From NCBI GenBank assembly GCA_963790025.1, contig CAWBMP010000001.1, positions 1-26,336 on the forward strand: a stretch of DNA of 26,336 bases, given 5' to 3'. Position numbers and translations under genes: made by a program. The stretch comes from Nitrospirota bacterium. Lineage in GTDB: Bacteria > Nitrospirota > Thermodesulfovibrionia > Thermodesulfovibrionales > Dissulfurispiraceae. Shown one piece after another: positions 1,190 through 11,860 of this stretch (the stretch's first letter is position 1; each line of letters opens with the position of its first letter). The notes under the pieces are model-generated. The model had not been told where the DNA came from. It was given only the letters and a program-made list of their open reading frames with translations, and ran no database searches.

Positions 1190-2575
1190 TTGAATTATAA
1201 CACCGTCCAGTTTATATTGTTATTTTTTCCTATAACGCTTATTTTGTTTTATTTATTTCCCAAACAGTTTCGCCTGCCTATACTATTGATTGCTTCTTTG
1301 TTCTTTTATTGGACTTCCGGAACCGTTGCTTTGGAATGTATGGTAATTGCCGTATTGTGGGGATACCTGACCGCTTTTTTGACGATGAAGTATCCAACCT
1401 TTTCTACTAAAATTGTCACTGTATCCTTGCCATTATTTATGTTATTCATGTTTAAATATCTCAATTTTACGTTAACAACGTTTGGCGCCGGTGAGAACAT
1501 AAGAAGCAGTTTTAATTTTTTTTTGAGTGTCACTATTCCGGCCGGTGTGAGTTTTTATACCTTTCATATTCTCAGCTATTCTCTTGATGTTGCAAGCGGT
1601 AAAATAAAAATCGAAAAAAACCCGCTTAAAATGGCCCTGTATGTAACTTTTTTCCCTCAACTCATAGCTGGTCCAATCCCGCGATACTGGCAAATAGAAT
1701 CACAACTGGAGAAGTTGAAAAATATAGATGCTTTAAAGCCGGATATAGTAAGCGGGATAAAGTATGTCTCCTATGGTATGTTTGTCAAAGTTTTCATTGC
1801 AGACAGATTATTTATTTGGCAGGATACCATATTTTATTCCTGTTTCAATTCAAGTTTACGTGTTGGTGAATTGAGCTCATTGGATGTGCTGTTCAACATA
1901 CTCGCATATTCATACAGGATTTATTTTGATTTTTGGGCATATTCGATAATCGCTATTGGTCTTGGGAAGTTTTTTTGCATAGAACTTCCGAGAAATTTTA
2001 ATGAACCCTATATTTCATTAAATCCGAAAGAATTCTGGCGTCGATGGCATATGACATTATCTTTCTGGCTAAAAGACTATGTTTATTTGCCCCTGGGCGG
2101 AAATAAGAAATACGTCCGCAACATAATGATCATCTTCCTTGCCTGTGGATTATGGCATGGCGCCGGATGGAGATTCGTAATCTGGGGAGCATATCATGCC
2201 TTTTTCGTTATTCTCTATCACTTTTTCAGAAGGCAATGGGACTCATTGGCTGCCGCAGTTCAAACAGCTATTACATTCACGATAATTTCATTTGGCTGGC
2301 CCCTGTTTTTCCATAACCCCTTCGGTCATGGCCAATACCAGGAAATGCTCGGGATTTTATTCAGTTTCAGGGGAGGTTTGGGCCAGTTCAGGCTTTGGCA
2401 TTGGGCTGCCCTGCTGATATTGGGAGCATTTGTCTTTTTCGTTAGAGAAGAAAAATGGCTATATAATGAAAAACCGGTTCCTCTTATCGACAGTCCGGTG
2501 TTTCAGGGGTGTGCCATGATACTGGCTATTACTTTTTTTGAATACTCGCAGACGTTTATTTATTTCAGGTTTTAA
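1190..2575 (+). CDS. MBOAT family O-acyltransferase (AlgI/PatA/DltB-like)
   Basis: 461 aa, polytopic. PAGVSFYTF, FFPQLIAGPI, YFDF, NFNEPY, FWRRWHMTLSFWLKDYVYLPLGG, GLWHGA (catalytic His codon at 2156-2158) and C-terminal FIYFRF. TTG start preceded by AGGAG. Confidence 0.95.
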   Translation: MNYNTVQFILLFFPITLILFYLFPKQFRLPILLIASLFFYWTSGTVALECMVIAVLWGYLTAFLTMKYPTFSTKIVTVSLPLFMLFMFKYLNFTLTTFGAGENIRSSFNFFLSVTIPAGVSFYTFHILSYSLDVASGKIKIEKNPLKMALYVTFFPQLIAGPIPRYWQIESQLEKLKNIDALKPDIVSGIKYVSYGMFVKVFIADRLFIWQDTIFYSCFNSSLRVGELSSLDVLFNILAYSYRIYFDFWAYSIIAIGLGKFFCIELPRNFNEPYISLNPKEFWRRWHMTLSFWLKDYVYLPLGGNKKYVRNIMIIFLACGLWHGAGWRFVIWGAYHAFFVILYHFFRRQWDSLAAAVQTAITFTIISFGWPLFFHNPFGHGQYQEMLGILFSFRGGLGQFRLWHWAALLILGAFVFFVREEKWLYNEKPVPLIDSPVFQGCAMILAITFFEYSQTFIYFRF

Positions 2576-2635
2576 TAATATCCATGTTTTTTGTTTTGTG
2601 CCGGCCAGGCTTTTATAAGTAGAGGTTTTTTTCAG

Positions 2636-3820
2636 GTGAACAATAAGGTTAAGCATTCTCTGTATTTTTTGATTGTTCTGGTCTCTTACCTAGTTTTAGG
2701 GGCCTTTGTCAGGGCTAATAACGTTCCCAGGTATGATGCCATAAATTTCTATGACCTGAAAAAGGGCTGTGTGTTTAATTTTTATGGTTTTACGCCGCAA
2801 GACAGCGCAAATATTAAAATTGCATTTATAGAGAACTTCACTCCCGCTGCTGTGGGCGCTTTTGGATGCCATGTCATAGATGATTTTTCCGTATCCGCCT
2901 TTCCAAAAGGAACCCCTGATAAATATTTTTATAATTACGACTTTCCGCATATATCCCTTCTCGAAACAAGGGACTTGCTGGCTTATCTGGCGAGTAAAAA
3001 TAAACTTCCCGGACAATTGGTTATTGTATCAATACTTGGTCCTTTGCACGCTGATGGCATCCTAATCCTCGACAGATCGGAGGATTTTCCTTTGGATATC
3101 GTTAATTTTTTTAATCTATACAGGGAACGTCAGAATTCATTTCTCTTGCCGGCATTAAATAGCATATTGAAATCATTAGATCAGTTTGAAATGTATATGA
3201 AAGCAACATATAACTATAAAACACTGCTTCTAGGTTTGTTAAAAAAAGATGACTTTAAGCAGCGGATATTATCACCGGATGATTGCAGGCAGCTTAAAAT
3301 TGATAAAGGGAGCACAAATTCTATGCTTACTAAGATTCTTCCTAAAATGGGTTTATTCACTATGATGGCACAAAACAATTTAAAAAATTATTGTTCCAAT
3401 CTGGATTTGTCACTTTTAGCCGATGGTTCCCGAATTCCACAAGAATTATTCTTACCTGATTCAGAGAGGAGAAGATTACATGACCAGCTTCATATGGATG
3501 AAAACAAAGACGATGACAAAGCTTCGAAATTGCAATATGGAGATGAAAAAGTCATTGCAAAGATTATGATAGACATAAATAGAATAGTTACAGAAAAAGG
3601 GAGAAAAGTCGTTTTTGTAATAACCCCTTTATATAGAGAAGATAAAAAGTTTCTTCCGGATGAGATTTTATCAAATGCACTCAAAATGGTCCCGGACCTG
3701 AACATAATCGATCATAGGCATATAGAAAAAGATAAAAGGTATTTTATTGATGAAGTGCACCCATCAAACGAATATTTCTCATATCTCGTAAGAGTCCTCC
3801 AATCTAAGAAACTTATTTGA
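2636..3820 (+). CDS. Membrane-anchored SGNH/DltD-like protein, probable extracytoplasmic acyltransferase partner of the MBOAT (paralog 1)
   Basis: Start moved from 2591 to GTG 2636, based on AGAGG at 2621-2625 and alignment with the paralog's N-terminus. N-terminal hydrophobic anchor, AFGCH at the block I position, FYNY, KVVFVITP, and C-terminal IDEVHPS (DxxH). Lies directly downstream of the MBOAT. Confidence 0.65.
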   Translation: MNNKVKHSLYFLIVLVSYLVLGAFVRANNVPRYDAINFYDLKKGCVFNFYGFTPQDSANIKIAFIENFTPAAVGAFGCHVIDDFSVSAFPKGTPDKYFYNYDFPHISLLETRDLLAYLASKNKLPGQLVIVSILGPLHADGILILDRSEDFPLDIVNFFNLYRERQNSFLLPALNSILKSLDQFEMYMKATYNYKTLLLGLLKKDDFKQRILSPDDCRQLKIDKGSTNSMLTKILPKMGLFTMMAQNNLKNYCSNLDLSLLADGSRIPQELFLPDSERRRLHDQLHMDENKDDDKASKLQYGDEKVIAKIMIDINRIVTEKGRKVVFVITPLYREDKKFLPDEILSNALKMVPDLNIIDHRHIEKDKRYFIDEVHPSNEYFSYLVRVLQSKKLI

Positions 3821-5034
3821 CCGGTAATCGGGTGAACAATAACATCAGGCATTCTATTTATTTTTTGGTTGTTCTGATCTCCTACCTGGTTTTGGGAGCT
3901 CTGGTCAGGGCACATGACGTTCCCAGGTATGATGCAATAAACTTCTACGGCCTGAAGAAAGACAACGTATTCAGTTTTTATGGCCTTACGGAACAAGACA
4001 GGGCAAATATCAAAACTGCATTCATAGAGAAGTTCCCCCCTGCCGCTGTGGGCGCCTTCGGATGTCATATCATAGACGGTTTTTCAGTTGCTGCTTTTCC
4101 AAAAGGGACCCCCGGCAAATATTTCTACAATTACAACTTTCCACACATGTCTCTTCTCGAAACCAGGGACTACCTGGCTTATCTGGCAAGTATAGATAAA
4201 CTTCCCGGTCAACTGGTAATTGTGTCGATACTCGATCCTTTATTTGTCAGCACTGCGCACATTTCGGGGTTAATGATTCTCGACAAGTCGGACAATCTTC
4301 CATCAGATATTGTTAATTTTTTTGATTCTTACAATGTGCGAAATTCCTTTCTCCCGCCGTTATTAAATAAGGTATTGAAAGTATTGGATCAGTTTGAAAT
4401 GTATATAAAAGCAACATATAACTACAAAACACTGCTTCTGGGACTGTTAAAGAAGGATGATTTTAATCGAAGGGTATTCTCACTGGATGATTGCAGGCAG
4501 CTTGCTACTGTTAAAGAGAGCACGAATTCCATTCTTCCCAGGGTCCTTCCTAAAATAGGCTTATTCACCGTTTTGGAACAAAACAATTCAAAAAATTATT
4601 GTTCCCATCTGGATTTGACGCTTTTAGCCGATGGTTCCAGGACCGCTCAGGAAATTTCCGTATCCGATACCGGGAGAAAAAGGGATTACGAATTTGTGGT
4701 GGATAGACGCATAGATAATGATAGTCGTTCAGAATTGCAGTATGGAGATGAAAAAGTCATCGCAGGGATTATGAGAGATATAAACAGGATAGTTACGGAA
4801 AAAGGCAGGAAAGTTGTTTTTGTGATAACTCCATTATATAAAGAAGGTCATAACCTTCCAGGTGAGATTTTGTCAAACGCCCTCAAAATGGTCCCTGACT
4901 TGAACGTAATCGATCACAGGTATATTAAGAAAAATGAGAATTATTTTATCGATCATGAGCATCCCTCAAACGAATATTTCTCCTATCTCGTAAAAATCCT
5001 GCAATCCAGGAAACTTATAGAACTGTCCAATTAA
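3817..5034 (+). CDS. Membrane-anchored SGNH/DltD-like protein (paralog 2, tandem duplicate)
   Basis: TTG overlaps the upstream TGA (alternative GTG at 3832). Aligns end to end with paralog 1, with shared blocks VPRYDAINFY, PAAVGAFGCH, KATYNYKTLLLGLLKKDDF, LQYGDEKVIA and HPSNEYFSYLV. DxxH motif is IDHEHPS. Confidence 0.65.
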   Translation: MTGNRVNNNIRHSIYFLVVLISYLVLGALVRAHDVPRYDAINFYGLKKDNVFSFYGLTEQDRANIKTAFIEKFPPAAVGAFGCHIIDGFSVAAFPKGTPGKYFYNYNFPHMSLLETRDYLAYLASIDKLPGQLVIVSILDPLFVSTAHISGLMILDKSDNLPSDIVNFFDSYNVRNSFLPPLLNKVLKVLDQFEMYIKATYNYKTLLLGLLKKDDFNRRVFSLDDCRQLATVKESTNSILPRVLPKIGLFTVLEQNNSKNYCSHLDLTLLADGSRTAQEISVSDTGRKRDYEFVVDRRIDNDSRSELQYGDEKVIAGIMRDINRIVTEKGRKVVFVITPLYKEGHNLPGEILSNALKMVPDLNVIDHRYIKKNENYFIDHEHPSNEYFSYLVKILQSRKLIELSN

Positions 5035-6339: not shown

Positions 6340-8559
6340 ATGATTTTACAGCAAAATCGTTTCTGTCAGATTTTCGGGAAGGTTGTCCTTGGTATTCTGC
6401 TGGTCTTTATGGTGGGCCTGCCGATAGTGCATACGTGGAAAATGTTAGTTTTCCTGGGCGGCATCCTGGCCTTGATCTACAGTGATATCATACTTGAAAA
6501 GAGGCGCGTTATTTGGGGAATAGGGATTGTTGCCTCGATGCTCACTATCAAAGCATTTTTGCCGGCGGCAGGAATCGAGGAGGGACATAATATCTTTCTT
6601 GTTTTTGAACCCGATACAGCATTGAAAGCAGAGGCTGTGAAAGATAACAAAGATATTTATGGCAACCTGATCCCGTCAAAGGAACATGATGAAATGCTCC
6701 TTCTTGCGCAGGGTAAAGGCACTCTTCAGCAGTCTATTCCCGTTCAGATATACAATGACTGGCGGCGAGAATTCAATAGGCTGTATCCCTCAAAGGAACC
6801 TCCTTACCCGAAAGAAATCTGGCAGCATGCGATATCTGCCGGAAATATGCCGGACAGGGCATATGCCTGGTCGGCGGATGCCTTTTGGCGTCCTGCGAAG
6901 TATTCACGGAAAGTCGACCATATAGATTTCAACAGTCTGGCCGAATTCCGGGGCGGATTCGCGAATGACAGGAAATATGATTGGTGGAAAGGCGACTTAT
7001 CGAGGAGGGCGATGCCTTTTTTTGTCATGTATGAATTTTCGGAGCGGAGTACGGGTTGCGAATTATTCTGGAAAGGCCCCCTGTTCTGGGAAAAAACTGA
7101 CGGGTCTTTTGAAAAGATTAACCACCCTGCGCTGACAGGCAAGACAATCACTCGGGCGGATGCGGGCAAAAGGGTCTATATCCTTTTTATGCCCCAGTTT
7201 ACGCCTGTCTTCCCAGTGTATCTTAAACTCAACACGACCCTGGCTGCGAGCCGGACCATTGGCAGCATTCTGACAGCCGTAGGCATTTTGGCGATTTTTA
7301 TGTTGCCGGCACGCTTCCGCTGGCGACCTTTTCTTAATGCAGCAGCCCTTGTTGCGATCGCCATGGTACTCATCTATGCCAGTATTGCATTCAGCGGTGG
7401 TAAACCTCTCGGGGCAAATTATGCATGCCAGGGGGGAGGCGATGACGGGATCTATCATGAATCTTTAGGCCACTACATTGCCGAGGCTTTCAGGCAAGGA
7501 CATGTCGCCGAAGCCCTGGCAGGATATGAGCCGGTTTACGGTGGGACCCCGGGGATGCGTTATTTCCGGGCATTGGAAAAGATAATCTTTGGGGATACGA
7601 ACTTGGGTCTGACCGCGTTCATTGCCTGTATGCCCTTATGGGTGTTTCTTCTTATTCGGCGTTTGTGCGGCGCGAAATGGGCATATAGCGGCGTCTTTGT
7701 ATTTCTCTTTTCTCCAATGAGTTTCTCGTTTGCCCAGTATATCGTCTGCGGCCTTCTCGGCTACGGCGAACCCGTGGGCAGCGGGCTTTTCATTCTCGGG
7801 GCCTTCCTGTTACTGAAATCTCAACCCCGACAAAGCGGCGACGATGGCAGTCCCGAAGATTTCAGTGCCTGGACCGCTTTCCTGGGCGGGGCTTTCCTGG
7901 CCGGCTCATTTTTTATCAGGCCCAATTATGCCATTGCAGCTGTTTTATTGGGCGGTTTTTATATGTATGCCGGTTTGCGTGATGGTCGTTTCCGACTGAT
8001 ATTTCCCGTTATGGTCGGGTTGGGCCTGGCTTCCTTTATGACTTGGCACAACTGGTATTTCGGACATGAGTTTTTCTTGATCAACGGATCAGTCGGAGAT
8101 GCGTTGCCTATCTCACCAATGACGTATATTCAGGCCTTCCGCGAATGGACTGCCGGGCTTATACATAGGACCGGATATGGACAAGCGCCGCATTTGAAGC
8201 AGGCAATGCAGCAGATCGAGAACTGGCTTTGGACGCCGCCTATCCAGCAGTTTCCCTTGCACAAAGGCGTCTCGCTGTTGCTGTTATTAAGACTATTCAC
8301 ACTTCTTGCGACCTTTTACGCCCTGTTTATTTCGCCGAAAAGATTCCCGTGCTTTGCGTTGCTGGCATGGGTCGCATTGGCTGCCCACATTCCCATGCTT
8401 TTGGTCTTCGATACAAAATTTCGTTATGCCCTTCTTGGATGGGATTTGTCCATGATCGTCACCATTATGCTGGCGGCCTATATAATGCGTCATCGTTCCC
8501 TTCCCCCGCTGTGGTACGGCAGAACAAACGCTGCACTTACGGAGCCTCAGGGCAGATGA
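6340..8559 (+). CDS. Large polytopic membrane protein, putative GT-C-type glycosyltransferase (paralog A)
   Basis: 739 aa. About 3 N-terminal TM segments, a ~230-aa soluble loop, then many TM segments. GGGDDG (7432-7449) follows a TM helix; also PGMRY, IFGDTNLG, GYGE, RPN, HNWYFG and FRYA. The ORF is solid but the function is inferred. Confidence 0.55.
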   Translation: MILQQNRFCQIFGKVVLGILLVFMVGLPIVHTWKMLVFLGGILALIYSDIILEKRRVIWGIGIVASMLTIKAFLPAAGIEEGHNIFLVFEPDTALKAEAVKDNKDIYGNLIPSKEHDEMLLLAQGKGTLQQSIPVQIYNDWRREFNRLYPSKEPPYPKEIWQHAISAGNMPDRAYAWSADAFWRPAKYSRKVDHIDFNSLAEFRGGFANDRKYDWWKGDLSRRAMPFFVMYEFSERSTGCELFWKGPLFWEKTDGSFEKINHPALTGKTITRADAGKRVYILFMPQFTPVFPVYLKLNTTLAASRTIGSILTAVGILAIFMLPARFRWRPFLNAAALVAIAMVLIYASIAFSGGKPLGANYACQGGGDDGIYHESLGHYIAEAFRQGHVAEALAGYEPVYGGTPGMRYFRALEKIIFGDTNLGLTAFIACMPLWVFLLIRRLCGAKWAYSGVFVFLFSPMSFSFAQYIVCGLLGYGEPVGSGLFILGAFLLLKSQPRQSGDDGSPEDFSAWTAFLGGAFLAGSFFIRPNYAIAAVLLGGFYMYAGLRDGRFRLIFPVMVGLGLASFMTWHNWYFGHEFFLINGSVGDALPISPMTYIQAFREWTAGLIHRTGYGQAPHLKQAMQQIENWLWTPPIQQFPLHKGVSLLLLLRLFTLLATFYALFISPKRFPCFALLAWVALAAHIPMLLVFDTKFRYALLGWDLSMIVTIMLAAYIMRHRSLPPLWYGRTNAALTEPQGR

Positions 8560-9688
8560 AATCAGCGGCAGAAAGGCCCTTTCGTATCGGACTTGTCGGC
8601 TTGGGCTATGCACGGTACGTGCTTTTGCCGCTATTTCAAAAACGTGCTGATTGCGAAGTAGTTGCACTCTGCGGCACGGACAATGAGAAAACTGAAAGGG
8701 TGGCTGCGGAGCATAGGGTCCCGCACGCCTATTCTGATTGGCGTGAAATGCTTGGTGAGCAAAGGCCGGACTTGCTTGCTATAGCAGTCCCCCCTGTTGT
8801 GCAGGGCGAAATTTTGCTGGAGACCGCGGGCCGCGGAATTCCCTGTTTCTGCGAAAAGCCATTGGCCTCTGATTGGCGGACAGCTTCACAAATTGTGAAG
8901 TCTGCCGGAGCCAATGCCGACATATGTGCGATTGATTTCATATTTCCAGAGTTGCCCTTATGGAAGCGGGCGCGGGACGTAATCCGCGAGGGAAAGCTTG
9001 GACAACTGCGTCATGCCTGCATCAACTGGCATGTGCAAACAGGCGCCTGCCGCGTGGGCCAGCACCCATGGAAACTGGATCGCAGGAAAGGCGGCGGTGT
9101 TTTGAACAGTTTTGTCAGCCACGTGCTTTATTATGTTGAATGGATGCTGGGCAAGGTTGTTTCCGTTGCATGTTTGCTTGATGAGCTTTCTGCCGGCCAG
9201 GATATTCGCGCAACTGTAAAGATGAAGCTTGCGTGCGGTGCGATGGTTGTATTGCAGGTCAGCCAGGATTCCCCTGCCGGGAGCGAACATCGGGTGGAGG
9301 TATATGGCGAGAATGGAGCCCTGCATCTGTACAACCCGTCGTCCGATTATGTAAAAGGGTTTACAGGCTTCTGGGCTGACGGATCCGGCCGCAAGGAATG
9401 TCTTGGCCATGAGAAGGAATTGCCGGACGGACCGGATGGCCGAATGATTGCCAGCGGAATGATTATTGATCGCTGGCTGGATTGTATCAGGCAAGGCCGC
9501 GGCATGATACCCAACATCAGAGATGGCCTGCGGGTTCAATATCTGCTTGATTGTTTGGAGAAATCTCATCAAGGCAGTCGTCTTTTTCACTGCGCCGGCA
9601 AGGAAGTGTCCCGGTCATGATTGCCCCTTTGATGCAAAATCGTTTCTGCCGGATTTTCGGGAAGGTTGTCCTTGGTATTCTGCTGGTC
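6351..9688 (+). repeat. 55-bp direct repeat at the 5' ends of the two membrane-protein paralogs (6351-6405 and 9634-9688)
   Basis: GCAAAATCGTTTCTG(TCA/CCG)GATTTTCGGGAAGGTTGTCCTTGGTATTCTGCTGGTC, 53/55 identical, offset 3283 bp. Confidence 0.9.
8556..9620 (+). CDS. Gfo/Idh/MocA family oxidoreductase (probable NDP-sugar ketoreductase/dehydrogenase)
   Basis: Start moved to ATG 8556 (ATGA overlap with the upstream stop), giving MKSAAERPFRIGLVGLGY. Also CEKP, GGGVLNSFVSH and VEVYGENG. Confidence 0.9.
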   Translation: MKSAAERPFRIGLVGLGYARYVLLPLFQKRADCEVVALCGTDNEKTERVAAEHRVPHAYSDWREMLGEQRPDLLAIAVPPVVQGEILLETAGRGIPCFCEKPLASDWRTASQIVKSAGANADICAIDFIFPELPLWKRARDVIREGKLGQLRHACINWHVQTGACRVGQHPWKLDRRKGGGVLNSFVSHVLYYVEWMLGKVVSVACLLDELSAGQDIRATVKMKLACGAMVVLQVSQDSPAGSEHRVEVYGENGALHLYNPSSDYVKGFTGFWADGSGRKECLGHEKELPDGPDGRMIASGMIIDRWLDCIRQGRGMIPNIRDGLRVQYLLDCLEKSHQGSRLFHCAGKEVSRS

Positions 9689-11860
9689 CTCATGTTGGGG
9701 TTGCCTATATTGCAGACCTGGAAGATGATCGCTTTTCTGGCCAGCATCCTGGCCTTGATTTACAGCGATATCATTTTTGAGAAAAAGCGCATTATTTGGG
9801 GTGTGGCGCTCGTCGTTTGCATTCTGACTGTCAAATCCTTCCTGCCGGTGGCGGGAATAGAGGAGGGTCACAATATTTTCCTCGTTTTTGAACCCGGCAT
9901 GACCATTAAGTTTAGCGGACGGGACACCTATGGCAATATAATTGACGCCTATCGCAATTTGGTCCCTTCAAAGGAACATGATGCGGTGCTTCGTCTTGCG
10001 CAGGGCAAGGGCGCTCTGCAGCAGTCCCTTCCGGCTGCAGTCTACAATGACTGGCGGCGTGAATTCAATAGTCGCTATCCCCCTATGGGACCTCCTTACG
10101 GAGGGGGCACCTGGCTCCAAAGGGTGTCCCAAGGGAACTTCCCGGACAGGGTATACGCCTATTCGTCTGATGCCTTGTGGCGCCCTGCCAAATACTCCAG
10201 AAAGGTGGATGACATAGCATTCAGCAGCCTTGCCGAATTCCGGGGTGGCTTTGCCAACGATTTAAAATACAATTTTTACGGCAATGATCCCATTACCTTT
10301 GCCCGCAATTTCGAGGTCCAGTTGCCGTTTTTCGTTATGTACGAATTTTCTGAGCAATCTGTTGGATGCACTTTGCTGTGGCAAGGCACTGTTTTCTGGC
10401 AAAAGAATGACGGATCTTATGAAAAGATCAGTCATACGAACTATTCGGGGAGAACCATTACGGCAAGTGATGCGGGAAAAAGAATATACGCGTTGAATCT
10501 TCCCGCAGTTTTTCCCGGGGGGTTCAAACAGTTGAGCGAATCACGGAACGTGCCGCGAACGCCGCAGCCATATGAATTAGCGATGAATCTGAAACTAAGC
10601 CCAAAACTTGCTGTCGGCCGTGCGGCGAGGGACGTTCTGAGCATAATGGGTATTGTCGCATTGATCGTTATTATGATGCACATTAAATGGAAATCCTATG
10701 TTGTCGCCATCAATATCACGGCACTTAGCCTAATCATCATTGGCGTATTTATTCATTATAGCAATGGGAAATTTCTTGGATATGAATATCCCCCCCAAGG
10801 TGGCGGAGACGACGGCATAGTTAATGAATCCTGGGGAAGGGATATTGCTCGTGCGACGATGAATGGCGATATCAGCAAAGCGTTTGAAGGGAATGAACCG
10901 ATTTACTGGTTTACCCCCGGGATGCGTTATGCCCGCTCCATAGAAAAAAATATTTTTGGTGACACCAATCTCGGATATACCGCGTTTGTCGCCCTTCTTC
11001 CATATTTCCTTTACCTGTTAATCAAACATGTTGCCGGATATAAGTGGGGGCTGGCAAGTGCTCTTTTCTTTGTCTTCCTGCCATTAGGCAGTTTCTCCTT
11101 TCTGCAATATATCCAGAATGCCAAGTTAGGATATGCCGAGGCAATGGGTTTCGGCTTGTTTATCTTTGGGTTATACCTGTTCATGCGTTCCAACCCGCGA
11201 TGGGGAGGAGAGAGGGACCGGTTTTTCGCTTTTATTGGAGGAATGTTTCTTGCTGCTTCCATGTTTCTCAGACCGAATTTTGTTATTGCCGTCGCAGTGC
11301 TCGGCCTTTTTTTCCTTTACGGCAGTTGGCGCATCCGTGATTTTACTCTCATGGGCTGCGCCTCGGCAGGGCTTGCACTCGCATTTTTGATGCCCATTCA
11401 TAATTTGTATTTCGGCCACCAGTTTTACCTCATTTCCAAAGCAGGAACGACTGTTTCAGTCACCCTGTCACCCATGACGTATCTTCAGGCCGGACAAGAA
11501 CTACTCGCCGGCAATTGGAAGGCCCAACATATCAATGAGGTTATTAAGCAGTTGTCGGGTTGGCTTTGGACGCTGCCACGGTTGACATATCCATCTCTTA
11601 AATTTGCCGCGGAGTTGTTTATGATCGGGAATTTAGTCACTCTGGCCATAACGGTCTTTATTGCTTTCCGACCATCCTTAAGGCGAGAGGTTATTTTTGT
11701 TTTGGCCTGGACGGCTTTGGCCGCTCACTTGCCGATGCTTTTCATTTATGATTCAGCACAATTCCGTTATGCCATGCTTGCCTGGGATCTGAGCGCGATT
11801 TTGACAATCGTGATAATTGCGAAAGGTTTATTAAATGTGCGGATTCGCCGGATTCATTGA
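9617..11860 (+). CDS. Large polytopic membrane protein, putative GT-C-type glycosyltransferase (paralog B)
   Basis: Start moved to ATG 9617 (ATGA overlap). Aligns throughout with 6340..8559: IEEGHNIFLVFEP, WRPAKYSRKVD, GGGDDG (10799-10816), TPGMRY, IFGDTNLG, RPN, HNLYFG and FRYA. Confidence 0.55.
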   Translation: MIAPLMQNRFCRIFGKVVLGILLVLMLGLPILQTWKMIAFLASILALIYSDIIFEKKRIIWGVALVVCILTVKSFLPVAGIEEGHNIFLVFEPGMTIKFSGRDTYGNIIDAYRNLVPSKEHDAVLRLAQGKGALQQSLPAAVYNDWRREFNSRYPPMGPPYGGGTWLQRVSQGNFPDRVYAYSSDALWRPAKYSRKVDDIAFSSLAEFRGGFANDLKYNFYGNDPITFARNFEVQLPFFVMYEFSEQSVGCTLLWQGTVFWQKNDGSYEKISHTNYSGRTITASDAGKRIYALNLPAVFPGGFKQLSESRNVPRTPQPYELAMNLKLSPKLAVGRAARDVLSIMGIVALIVIMMHIKWKSYVVAINITALSLIIIGVFIHYSNGKFLGYEYPPQGGGDDGIVNESWGRDIARATMNGDISKAFEGNEPIYWFTPGMRYARSIEKNIFGDTNLGYTAFVALLPYFLYLLIKHVAGYKWGLASALFFVFLPLGSFSFLQYIQNAKLGYAEAMGFGLFIFGLYLFMRSNPRWGGERDRFFAFIGGMFLAASMFLRPNFVIAVAVLGLFFLYGSWRIRDFTLMGCASAGLALAFLMPIHNLYFGHQFYLISKAGTTVSVTLSPMTYLQAGQELLAGNWKAQHINEVIKQLSGWLWTLPRLTYPSLKFAAELFMIGNLVTLAITVFIAFRPSLRREVIFVLAWTALAAHLPMLFIYDSAQFRYAMLAWDLSAILTIVIIAKGLLNVRIRRIH

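Follow-up and report, generated by a model that had tools for sequence, protein, structure and literature searches.

The window analysed here, a stretch of 26,336 nucleotides of DNA from a Nitrospirota bacterium, carries at positions 1190-5034 of its + strand a three-gene module that is likely to serve in glycan acylation. It consists of a membrane-bound O-acyltransferase (MBOAT) followed by two copies of a DltD/DUF1574-like partner protein, predicted to be periplasm-facing, membrane-anchored and of SGNH fold, for which a histidine-based chemistry is favoured; the MBOAT and its two partners probably acylate a sugar polymer of the surface. In the alignments, the position of the nucleophilic serine of SGNH enzymes is occupied in these partners by a histidine, His79, and not by the neighbouring cysteine, Cys78. 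More tentatively, the partners may represent a rare DltD/DUF1574-like family of MBOAT partners in which the SGNH serine has given way to an invariant histidine and in which glycans would be acylated without an acyl-serine, either by way of an acyl-imidazole on His79 or by direct His-catalysed transfer. The free Cys and the lost block III Asn of the clade present in the window may then signal that the chemistry or the acceptor has changed further.

The features of the module are the following, residue numbering throughout being that of partner 2 (P0001).

1190-2575, + strand: MBOAT of 461 aa, DltB/AlgI/PatA-like (Pfam PF03062, E 1.5e-22)
2555-2572, + strand: FIYFRF, C-terminal hexapeptide of the MBOAT, an FxYxxF acyl-shuttle motif with Tyr458 (read from the sequence)
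2636-3820, + strand: partner 1 (P0003), 394 aa, N-terminal anchor and DltD/DUF1574-like SGNH-fold domain with a cap insertion (family membership)
2864-2872, + strand: block I of partner 1, G77-C78-H79, GGA TGC CAT (sequence and profile alignments)
3749-3760, + strand: block V of partner 1, D-E-V-H, a DxxH motif (sequence and profile alignment)
3832-5034, + strand: partner 2 (P0001), 400 aa, architecture as in partner 1 (AlphaFold2 model, Foldseek, VIA-align)
4060-4068, + strand: block I of partner 2, G77-C78-H79, GGA TGT CAT (sequence and profile alignments)
4951-4962, + strand: block V of partner 2, D374-H-E-H377 (sequence and profile alignment)

The open reading frames (ORFs) listed for the two partners span 2591-3820 and 3817-5034, and their true starts are likely GTG 2636 and GTG 3832, as in the entries of the public protein collection. 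The motifs named in a preliminary description of this DNA were all found, namely AFGCH in both partners (in frame, as GAFGCH, at 2855-2872 and 4051-4068), with the Cys encoded by TGC at 2867-2869 and TGT at 4063-4065, and the C-terminal DEVH and DHEH. The N-terminal anchor that it assigned to both partners was seen as a hydrophobic segment (mean Kyte-Doolittle 2.2-2.3, residues 9-27), which the structural model of partner 2 renders as a helix at residues 4-27. Partners 1 and 2 are paralogues with 283 of 400 residues identical (71%), a synonymous divergence (dS) of 0.79 and a ratio of non-synonymous to synonymous divergence (dN/dS) of 0.21; over all paralogues of the genome, dN/dS is 0.14-0.21, pointing to purifying selection. 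Since a synonymous codon change at a retained residue is the expected state of paralogues at this divergence, the use of different codons for the Cys, read earlier as an argument against a one-off mutation, is a weak signal.

Fold, family and active-site register of the partners

The SGNH/DltD-like character of the partners had been assigned by eye, and it was borne out when structures were predicted and compared. The AlphaFold2 (AF2) model of P0001 built with a 107-sequence alignment reached a predicted local distance difference test score (pLDDT) of 87.9 and a predicted template modelling score (pTM) of 0.90, superseding a run on three close paralogues alone (pLDDT 37). In a Foldseek search against the PDB, DltD chains filled the top 10 rows (6o93, 7dxm, 6pfx and 3bma, E 8.7e-5 to 2.1e-3), with GDSL lipases, platelet-activating factor acetylhydrolase and PatB ranking below them. 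With VIA-align, run against 48,161 representative chains, the best 50 matches were all SGNH-fold proteins (Z 8.3-12.9), and a further look with this program gave Z values up to 13.1. Structure 7pzg was matched over 176 residues at Z 12.9 and a root mean square deviation of 3.5 Å, while the longest colinear alignments were those with DltD (253-262 residues, Z 11.8-12.1), of which 6pfx_B and 7dxm_A (Z 11.8) covered model residues 33-400 and 6o93 reached Z 12.1. The model thus has the three-layer alpha/beta/alpha arrangement with parallel sheet that defines the fold, and the partners share the whole architecture of DltD: an anchor, an SGNH core with a cap insertion, a length of about 390 aa and pairing with an MBOAT.

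At the level of sequence families, no match to Pfam or NCBIfam was found for the partners. A word-based search with P0001 returned 4 proteins only, the three paralogues of this genome and one fragment, and these are the sequences on which conservation of Cys78 within the clade could be judged in the collections searched. A HMMER search of 1.84 billion representatives extended the family to 152 proteins at E<=1e-3; 108 homologues of 320-440 aa were aligned and 45 fragments or outliers dropped, and P0068, whose block I looks garbled, was left out of the 107-sequence alignment used for AF2. A further profile search gave 78 proteins at E<=1e-10 and, among the matches listed, every source name was "hypothetical protein". 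No member of the 107 matched the Pfam models for DltD, DUF1574 or ALGX at E<=0.01, and the DUF459/PatB model matched a single member (E 4.8e-4) and neither window protein. The DltD model PF04914 had no match in the window proteins at E<=1, nor in the genome scan. Family profiles made from 3 and from 107 sequences found nothing significant among the sequences of solved structures, the best hit being block V of a GDSL lipase at E 0.47. The partner family lies outside DltD, its nearest relation by structure, and DUF1574, its nearest by profile, on both family model and catalytic Ser, and is absent from Pfam and NCBIfam.

Conservation across the 108 homologues is concentrated in few columns, namely G77 (104), H79 (104), N100 (108), L124 (104), P125 (108), P136 (103), C221 (100), C257 (97), D267 (102), G268 (108), P334 (107), D361 (106), R363 (105) and H377 (103). 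P0001 has lost none of the 14 columns conserved to at least 90%, and retains the consensus residue in 54 of the 64 where the consensus reaches at least 60%. His79 and His377 occur together in 99 homologues, and an acid (Asp or Glu) is found at -3 and/or -1 of the block V His in 98, with Asp at -3 in 45, the window proteins included, and Asp at -1 in 60. Apart from C221 and C257, no column is Ser, Thr or Cys in at least 88% of the homologues. These two cysteines probably form a disulfide, since they co-occur in 96 homologues and are jointly absent from 7; covarying as they do, they were judged unlikely to be catalytic. Ser269 of the D-G-S motif was likewise considered as an alternative nucleophile and rejected, being Ala in 16 of 108.

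Table 2 of PMC10792757 gives block I as G-x-S for all its catalytic SGNH families (G-S-S-E-L in DltD), and the text of that paper describes the residue preceding the nucleophile as a structural Asx- or ST-motif residue. The register of the partners against this motif was taken from three kinds of comparison. When the family, with its cap insertion (residues 151-299) excised, was aligned by hhalign to 19 Lipase_GDSL_2 domains from relatives' genomes (Prob 83.8%, E 7.9e-6, 153 columns), G77 was paired with G, N/C78 with D, H79 with S, N100 with the block II Asn and D374-x-x-H377 with DxxH, so that the C-terminal DxxH of the partners is the block V motif. Against a DUF1574-like MBOAT partner (Prob 79%, E 1.6e-5), G-C-H was placed opposite G-S-S, and a global alignment with that protein also paired the D-G-S motif and block V. 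Structural ranges were read from rows starting 10 or fewer residues before block I, with no gap assumed and, for structures absent from the table of PMC10792757, with the Ser numbering of the listed entry of the same protein; 10 of the 12 put Ser at residue 79 (1yzf, 1vjg, 1deo, 3dc7, 3bzw, 5tic_B, 1j00, 6lfc_D, 5tif and 5tie). Because the GDSL_2 profile, the DUF1574-like profile and these ranges agree, His79 is assigned to the Ser position. The secondary structure given by DSSP for the AF2 model runs from a strand (73-76) through two coil residues to a helix from 79. Such a succession of strand, short coil and helix start is the usual setting of the nucleophile in the SGNH fold.

The partners consequently differ from the catalytic definition of SGNH enzymes in block I, where His and not Ser stands in 104 of 108 homologues. 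In block II, the Asn100 kept in all homologues is aligned with the Asn standing just before the block II Gly, and this Gly is not kept. In block III, the core family reads T-P-N-N and the window proteins L-D-P-L or L-G-P-L, the register of this loop differing by one residue between hhalign and the analogy with DltD. The DxxH of block V is present. The preliminary description had seen a Cys in place of the catalytic Ser. The unusual non-Ser block I that it noticed is real; its register was off by one, Cys78 aligning with the D of G-D-S, or the first S of a DltD-like G-S-S, and His79, family-wide, with the nucleophilic Ser.

Two observations concern divergent members. In a small subclade (P0123, P0141 and P0145) the motif is F/Y-G-M-V-H, the His standing one residue further on than elsewhere in the family; this would be due to a shift of the alignment or of the loop, or else the site is a variant one. 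In the core of the family the third strand is followed by T-T-P-N-N-D-N-G, where the window proteins have L-D-P-L-F-V-S... or L-G-P-L, and the window proteins are also without the consensus Gln80, Glu337 and Arg340.

Linkage to the MBOAT and comparison with known systems

The first gene of the module scores 146.7 bits with the NCBIfam DltB model, under its 375-bit cut-off. Among 7 aligned MBOAT orthologues H287 and H323 are invariant, as is the C-terminal T-F-I-Y-F-x-F (7/7). An MBOAT domain, conserved His and an FxYxxF tail place it with the bacterial MBOATs of MBOAT-SGNH pairs of the PatA/AlgI type. For PatA, PMC12148441 describes auto-acetylation at the FxYxxF motif's invariant Tyr and use of the acetyl-Tyr hexapeptide as donor for PatB; it places the motif at the C-terminus of other polymer-acylation MBOATs and, in the Dlt system, on DltX.

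Association of the partner family with such an MBOAT was strict. Distant loci were retrieved with a 10-sequence alignment of the core family, giving 11 loci from named assemblies (Alphaproteobacteria metagenome-assembled genomes, Magnetospirillum sulfuroxidans and one Deltaproteobacteria metagenome-assembled genome). In 11 of 11 an MBOAT 43-51% identical to that of the window lies directly upstream on the same strand. The genome itself holds two MBOAT matches only, each beside a partner-family gene, so that the adjacency noted earlier for the window holds in every locus looked at. In 9 of the 11 loci 78 ORFs were called, from which 36 neighbouring ORFs were chosen and scanned; around the pairs they encode glycan-modification proteins (carbamoyltransferase, WbqC, DegT, glycosyltransferase, Wzy_C). 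A NodU/CmcH-type carbamoyltransferase (PF02543/PF16861) adjoins the MBOAT-partner pair in 6 of 9 loci (L005, L006, L008, L009, L010 and L014), and the two may make up a recurrent glycan-decoration cassette. WbqC follows the pair in 2 of the 9 relatives' loci. No Pfam match to a carrier-protein or adenylating-ligase family was obtained among the scanned window products or the 36 neighbouring ORFs of the relatives.

Among characterised systems, DltB/DltD, which with DltX, DltC and DltA serves lipoteichoic acid D-alanylation, resembles the module in combining an MBOAT with an anchored extracytoplasmic SGNH protein of about 390 aa that has a large cap insertion, and in its FxYxxF acyl-Tyr shuttle motif. 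A Pro in block III is also shared, DltD having I-S-P-Q-W as given in PMC10792757 and the partner-family core T-P-N. In contrast to the Dlt system, where the shuttle motif is carried by the DltX microprotein, that of the module is fused to the MBOAT; the present host is diderm and the context a glycan cluster, and a Dlt operon context (DltA ligase, DltC carrier, DltX) was not found in the scanned window products or the relatives' neighbours. At the active site, the triad of L. plantarum DltD is Ser74/Asp373/His376 according to PMC13653941, and block I of the partners is G-[N/C]-H, with G-C-H in the window proteins, where DltD has G-S-S, so that the Ser-His-Asp triad of DltD is not present.

Together with DltD, the uncharacterised SGNH-clan family DUF1574 (PF07611) is the nearest named neighbour by protein-language-model features. 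The DUF1574-like protein used above comes from a locus of the same phylum (L037, G015:C49:1-3454) that is a canonical, Ser-containing counterpart of the module: an MBOAT ending in FIYFQF precedes a DUF1574/DltD-like protein of 387 aa that has G-S-S and D-G-M-H. This protein scores 28.9 bits with DUF1574 against a cut-off of 29.1, and has weak DltD and GDSL matches. It shares with the partner family the block II Asn and an L-P motif, beside the D-G-S motif and block V of the global alignment, and differs in block I, G-S-S as opposed to G-N-H or G-C-H. The partners themselves do not match the DUF1574 model, and their relation to it consists in the profile-profile alignment to this one protein.

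PatA/PatB of peptidoglycan O-acetylation, AlgI/AlgJ/AlgX and WssH/WssI likewise pair an MBOAT carrying a C-terminal FxYxxF with one or more periplasmic SGNH-type partners that act on a polymer. The PatA/PatB type follows a logic of acyl-CoA to acyl-Tyr to partner to polymer as set out in PMC12148441, and AlgJ with AlgX offers a parallel for two partner proteins. PatB structures were matched by the partner model at Z 10.6-10.9. Unlike the partner family with its His, PatB, AlgJ and AlgX all have Ser as the nucleophile according to PMC10792757, which also gives AlgJ and AlgX a permuted D-H...S order whereas the partner family has the canonical order of block I to block V. Neither a match to the AlgX/AlgJ model (PF16822) nor the permuted D-x-H ... 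G-T-S was found in the partners.

Proposed transfer route and alternative explanations

By analogy with the published PatA work, the MBOAT would accept an acyl group on the cytoplasmic side, with an acyl-CoA as the probable donor, and, as in PatA and DltX, load it onto Tyr458 of its own FIYFRF tail. The tail would then present the acyl-Tyr to the pocket of the partner, which would hand the acyl group on to a sugar of the glycan, either nascent or exported. In the pocket, His79 would face His377 of block V and its Asp at -3 or -1, and the canonical Ser-His-Asp route would be unusable. A His may serve as general base, activating the acceptor hydroxyl so that it attacks the acyl-Tyr ester directly, or His79 may carry the acyl group transiently as an acyl-imidazole. 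Chemistry based on His is favoured because no conserved Ser, Thr or Cys stands at or near the nucleophile position, while the two His are near-invariant. The tandem partners may differ in the positions or sugars that they modify, or may work one after the other as is thought for AlgJ and AlgX.

Several points weigh against this interpretation. The probabilities of the profile alignments are moderate (79-84%), and the alignment to GDSL_2 needed removal of an insertion of roughly 150 residues. Uncut, it gave a Prob of 3.5% with an identical block I pairing, a low value attributed to the insertion since excision raises it to 84-89%. Two of the 12 structural ranges (1ivn and 6lfb) put Ser at residue 78 if gapless. 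The proximity of His79 and His377 would follow by homology from that of the Ser-His pair. Finally, the window clade has lost Asn78, Gln80 and the T-T-P-N-N-D-N-G stretch typical of the core, including the Asn that, by analogy with S-P-Q of DltD, would be the block III oxyanion residue; because of these losses the window clade may differ from the core family in how it works, or may work poorly.

An alternative is that the partners are non-catalytic SGNH-fold pseudoenzymes, which would serve as adaptors for the MBOAT tail or for the glycan and hold it while transfer is carried out by the tail itself or by another protein. A nucleophile position without Ser, a block II Gly that is not kept and a block III Asn missing in the window clade are all compatible with this explanation, and non-catalytic SGNH folds do exist, an example in Table 2 of PMC10792757 being the OSK domain with a G-D-D block I. 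However, His79, His377, Asn100, Asp267-Gly268, Asp361 and Arg363 remain near-invariant at a mean column identity of 18%, which argues for a working rather than a decayed site. The dN/dS values also speak against loss of function, and the scanned loci show no other candidate transferase with consistent linkage. Pseudoenzymes are therefore considered unlikely.

It is quite improbable that the centre formed by His79, His377 and Asp binds a metal or supports hydrolysis, so that the partner would be a glycan esterase or editing enzyme and not a transferase. Two adjacent His with conserved acids (98 of 108) may resemble metal-binding sets, and esterases make up most of the SGNH relatives in the fold lists, but the strict adjacency to an MBOAT with a shuttle tail (11/11) fits a transferase partner of the PatB or DltD kind.

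The preliminary description had proposed a Cys-His-Asp triad with Cys78 as nucleophile, the partners holding the acyl group as a thioester. This proposal did not withstand the comparison of homologues. Position 78 is Asn in 72 of the 108, Ser in 8, His in 6, Asp in 5, Cys, Gly and Met in 3 each, Thr and Leu in 2 each, and Pro, Val, Ala and Tyr in 1 each, so that it varies freely over 13 residue types, the very outcome that the preliminary description had named as speaking against its proposal. Cys78 itself is confined to the three paralogues of this genome, which form one long branch in a FastTree phylogeny of the family. Both profile alignments place it opposite the residue before the nucleophile, and Gly77 (104/108) fits the G of G-x-S only in the register of His79. 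The place before the nucleophile being that of a structural Asx- or ST-motif residue in PMC10792757, Cys78 is best read from these alignments as a substitute for a structural Asn/Asp and not as a nucleophile. In favour of the thioester, Cys78 is present in all three paralogues and is the sole Cys of P0001 besides C221 and C257, so that it may be a free periplasmic thiol near the active-site loop; the two deviating structural ranges would put Ser at its position, and a new function is conceivable in a long-branch clade with a remodelled active-site neighbourhood. With position 78 variable, the register off by one and the argument from different codons of little weight at a dS of 0.79, the Cys-nucleophile reading is unsupported and most improbable.

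Genomic setting and meaning of the family

The whole 26-kb window is a single polysaccharide cluster on the + strand. Its products include epimerases/dehydratases, a sugar C-methyltransferase, a GFO/IDH/MocA oxidoreductase, an AsnB-type amidotransferase, GT4 and GT2 glycosyltransferases, a Bac_transf initiating transferase, Polysacc_synt_2, Wzy_C and YfhO. The genome encodes LpxC, and the host cell is therefore taken to be diderm. A third partner copy (P0002), 74% identical, adjoins the second MBOAT, itself 84% identical, in a paralogous glycan cluster (G000:C2:546000-563000) that keeps the local gene order of the window: an epimerase, the MBOAT, one partner, a C-methyltransferase and GFO/IDH/MocA. 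The C-methyltransferase of that locus matches positions 1-69 only of the 160 of the Methyltransf_14 model, and may be truncated or divergent.

The G+C content of the MBOAT (38.3%), partner 1 (35.8%) and partner 2 (39.9%) is well below the 51-52% of the neighbouring genes. A sample of 300 other genomes of the phylum did not contain the partner family (E<=1e-10), nor did 9 other species of the genus (E<=1e-5; completeness 74-100%). Horizontal acquisition followed by duplication is suggested by this contrast in G+C content (36-40% versus about 51%) together with the absence from the phylum sample and from the congeners, and these observations point to 1190-5034 as a horizontally acquired low-G+C three-gene module inside a surface-polysaccharide cluster of O-antigen or exopolysaccharide type.

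Three further genes of the cluster were noted. At 6340-8559 (+) lies a 739-aa multi-pass membrane protein without Pfam match, whose sole match is a weak one to the NCBIfam LA_3751/LA_3752 putative glycosyltransferase family (E 6.6e-6, with a score well under the cut-off); within the cluster it may have a GT-C-like or polymerase-like part. The GFO/IDH/MocA oxidoreductase ORF, listed at 8229-9620 (+), shares about 330 nt with the gene before it, and its real start is probably near 8560-8580, since the Pfam match begins at residue 118. A 769-aa ORF in mid-cluster, at 9551-11860 (+), has no Pfam family at E<=1e-3.

A full-text literature search found no description of an SGNH-type MBOAT partner that lacks the catalytic Ser or has it replaced, which is no proof of being unpublished and gives weak evidence that no such Ser-less partner family has been described so far. 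In the unified MBOAT-SGNH scheme, as presented in PMC12148441, the acyl group moves from acyl-CoA to an acyl-Tyr on the shuttle tail, then to an acyl-Ser on the SGNH partner and finally to the polymer. In the present module the MBOAT with its tail is intact and its linkage to the partner is strict, yet a His stands in the partner at the place where an acyl-Ser would be expected. Cys78, though eye-catching, is not the feature to pursue; the family-wide replacement of Ser by His is.

Taken together, these results give a name to a gene pair now annotated as "hypothetical protein" and predict an acyl decoration on the surface glycan of this organism, encoded twice in its genome. Should the family prove active, the unified scheme would not be universal in its last step, and the partners would provide a natural test case for transfer by an SGNH scaffold without serine.

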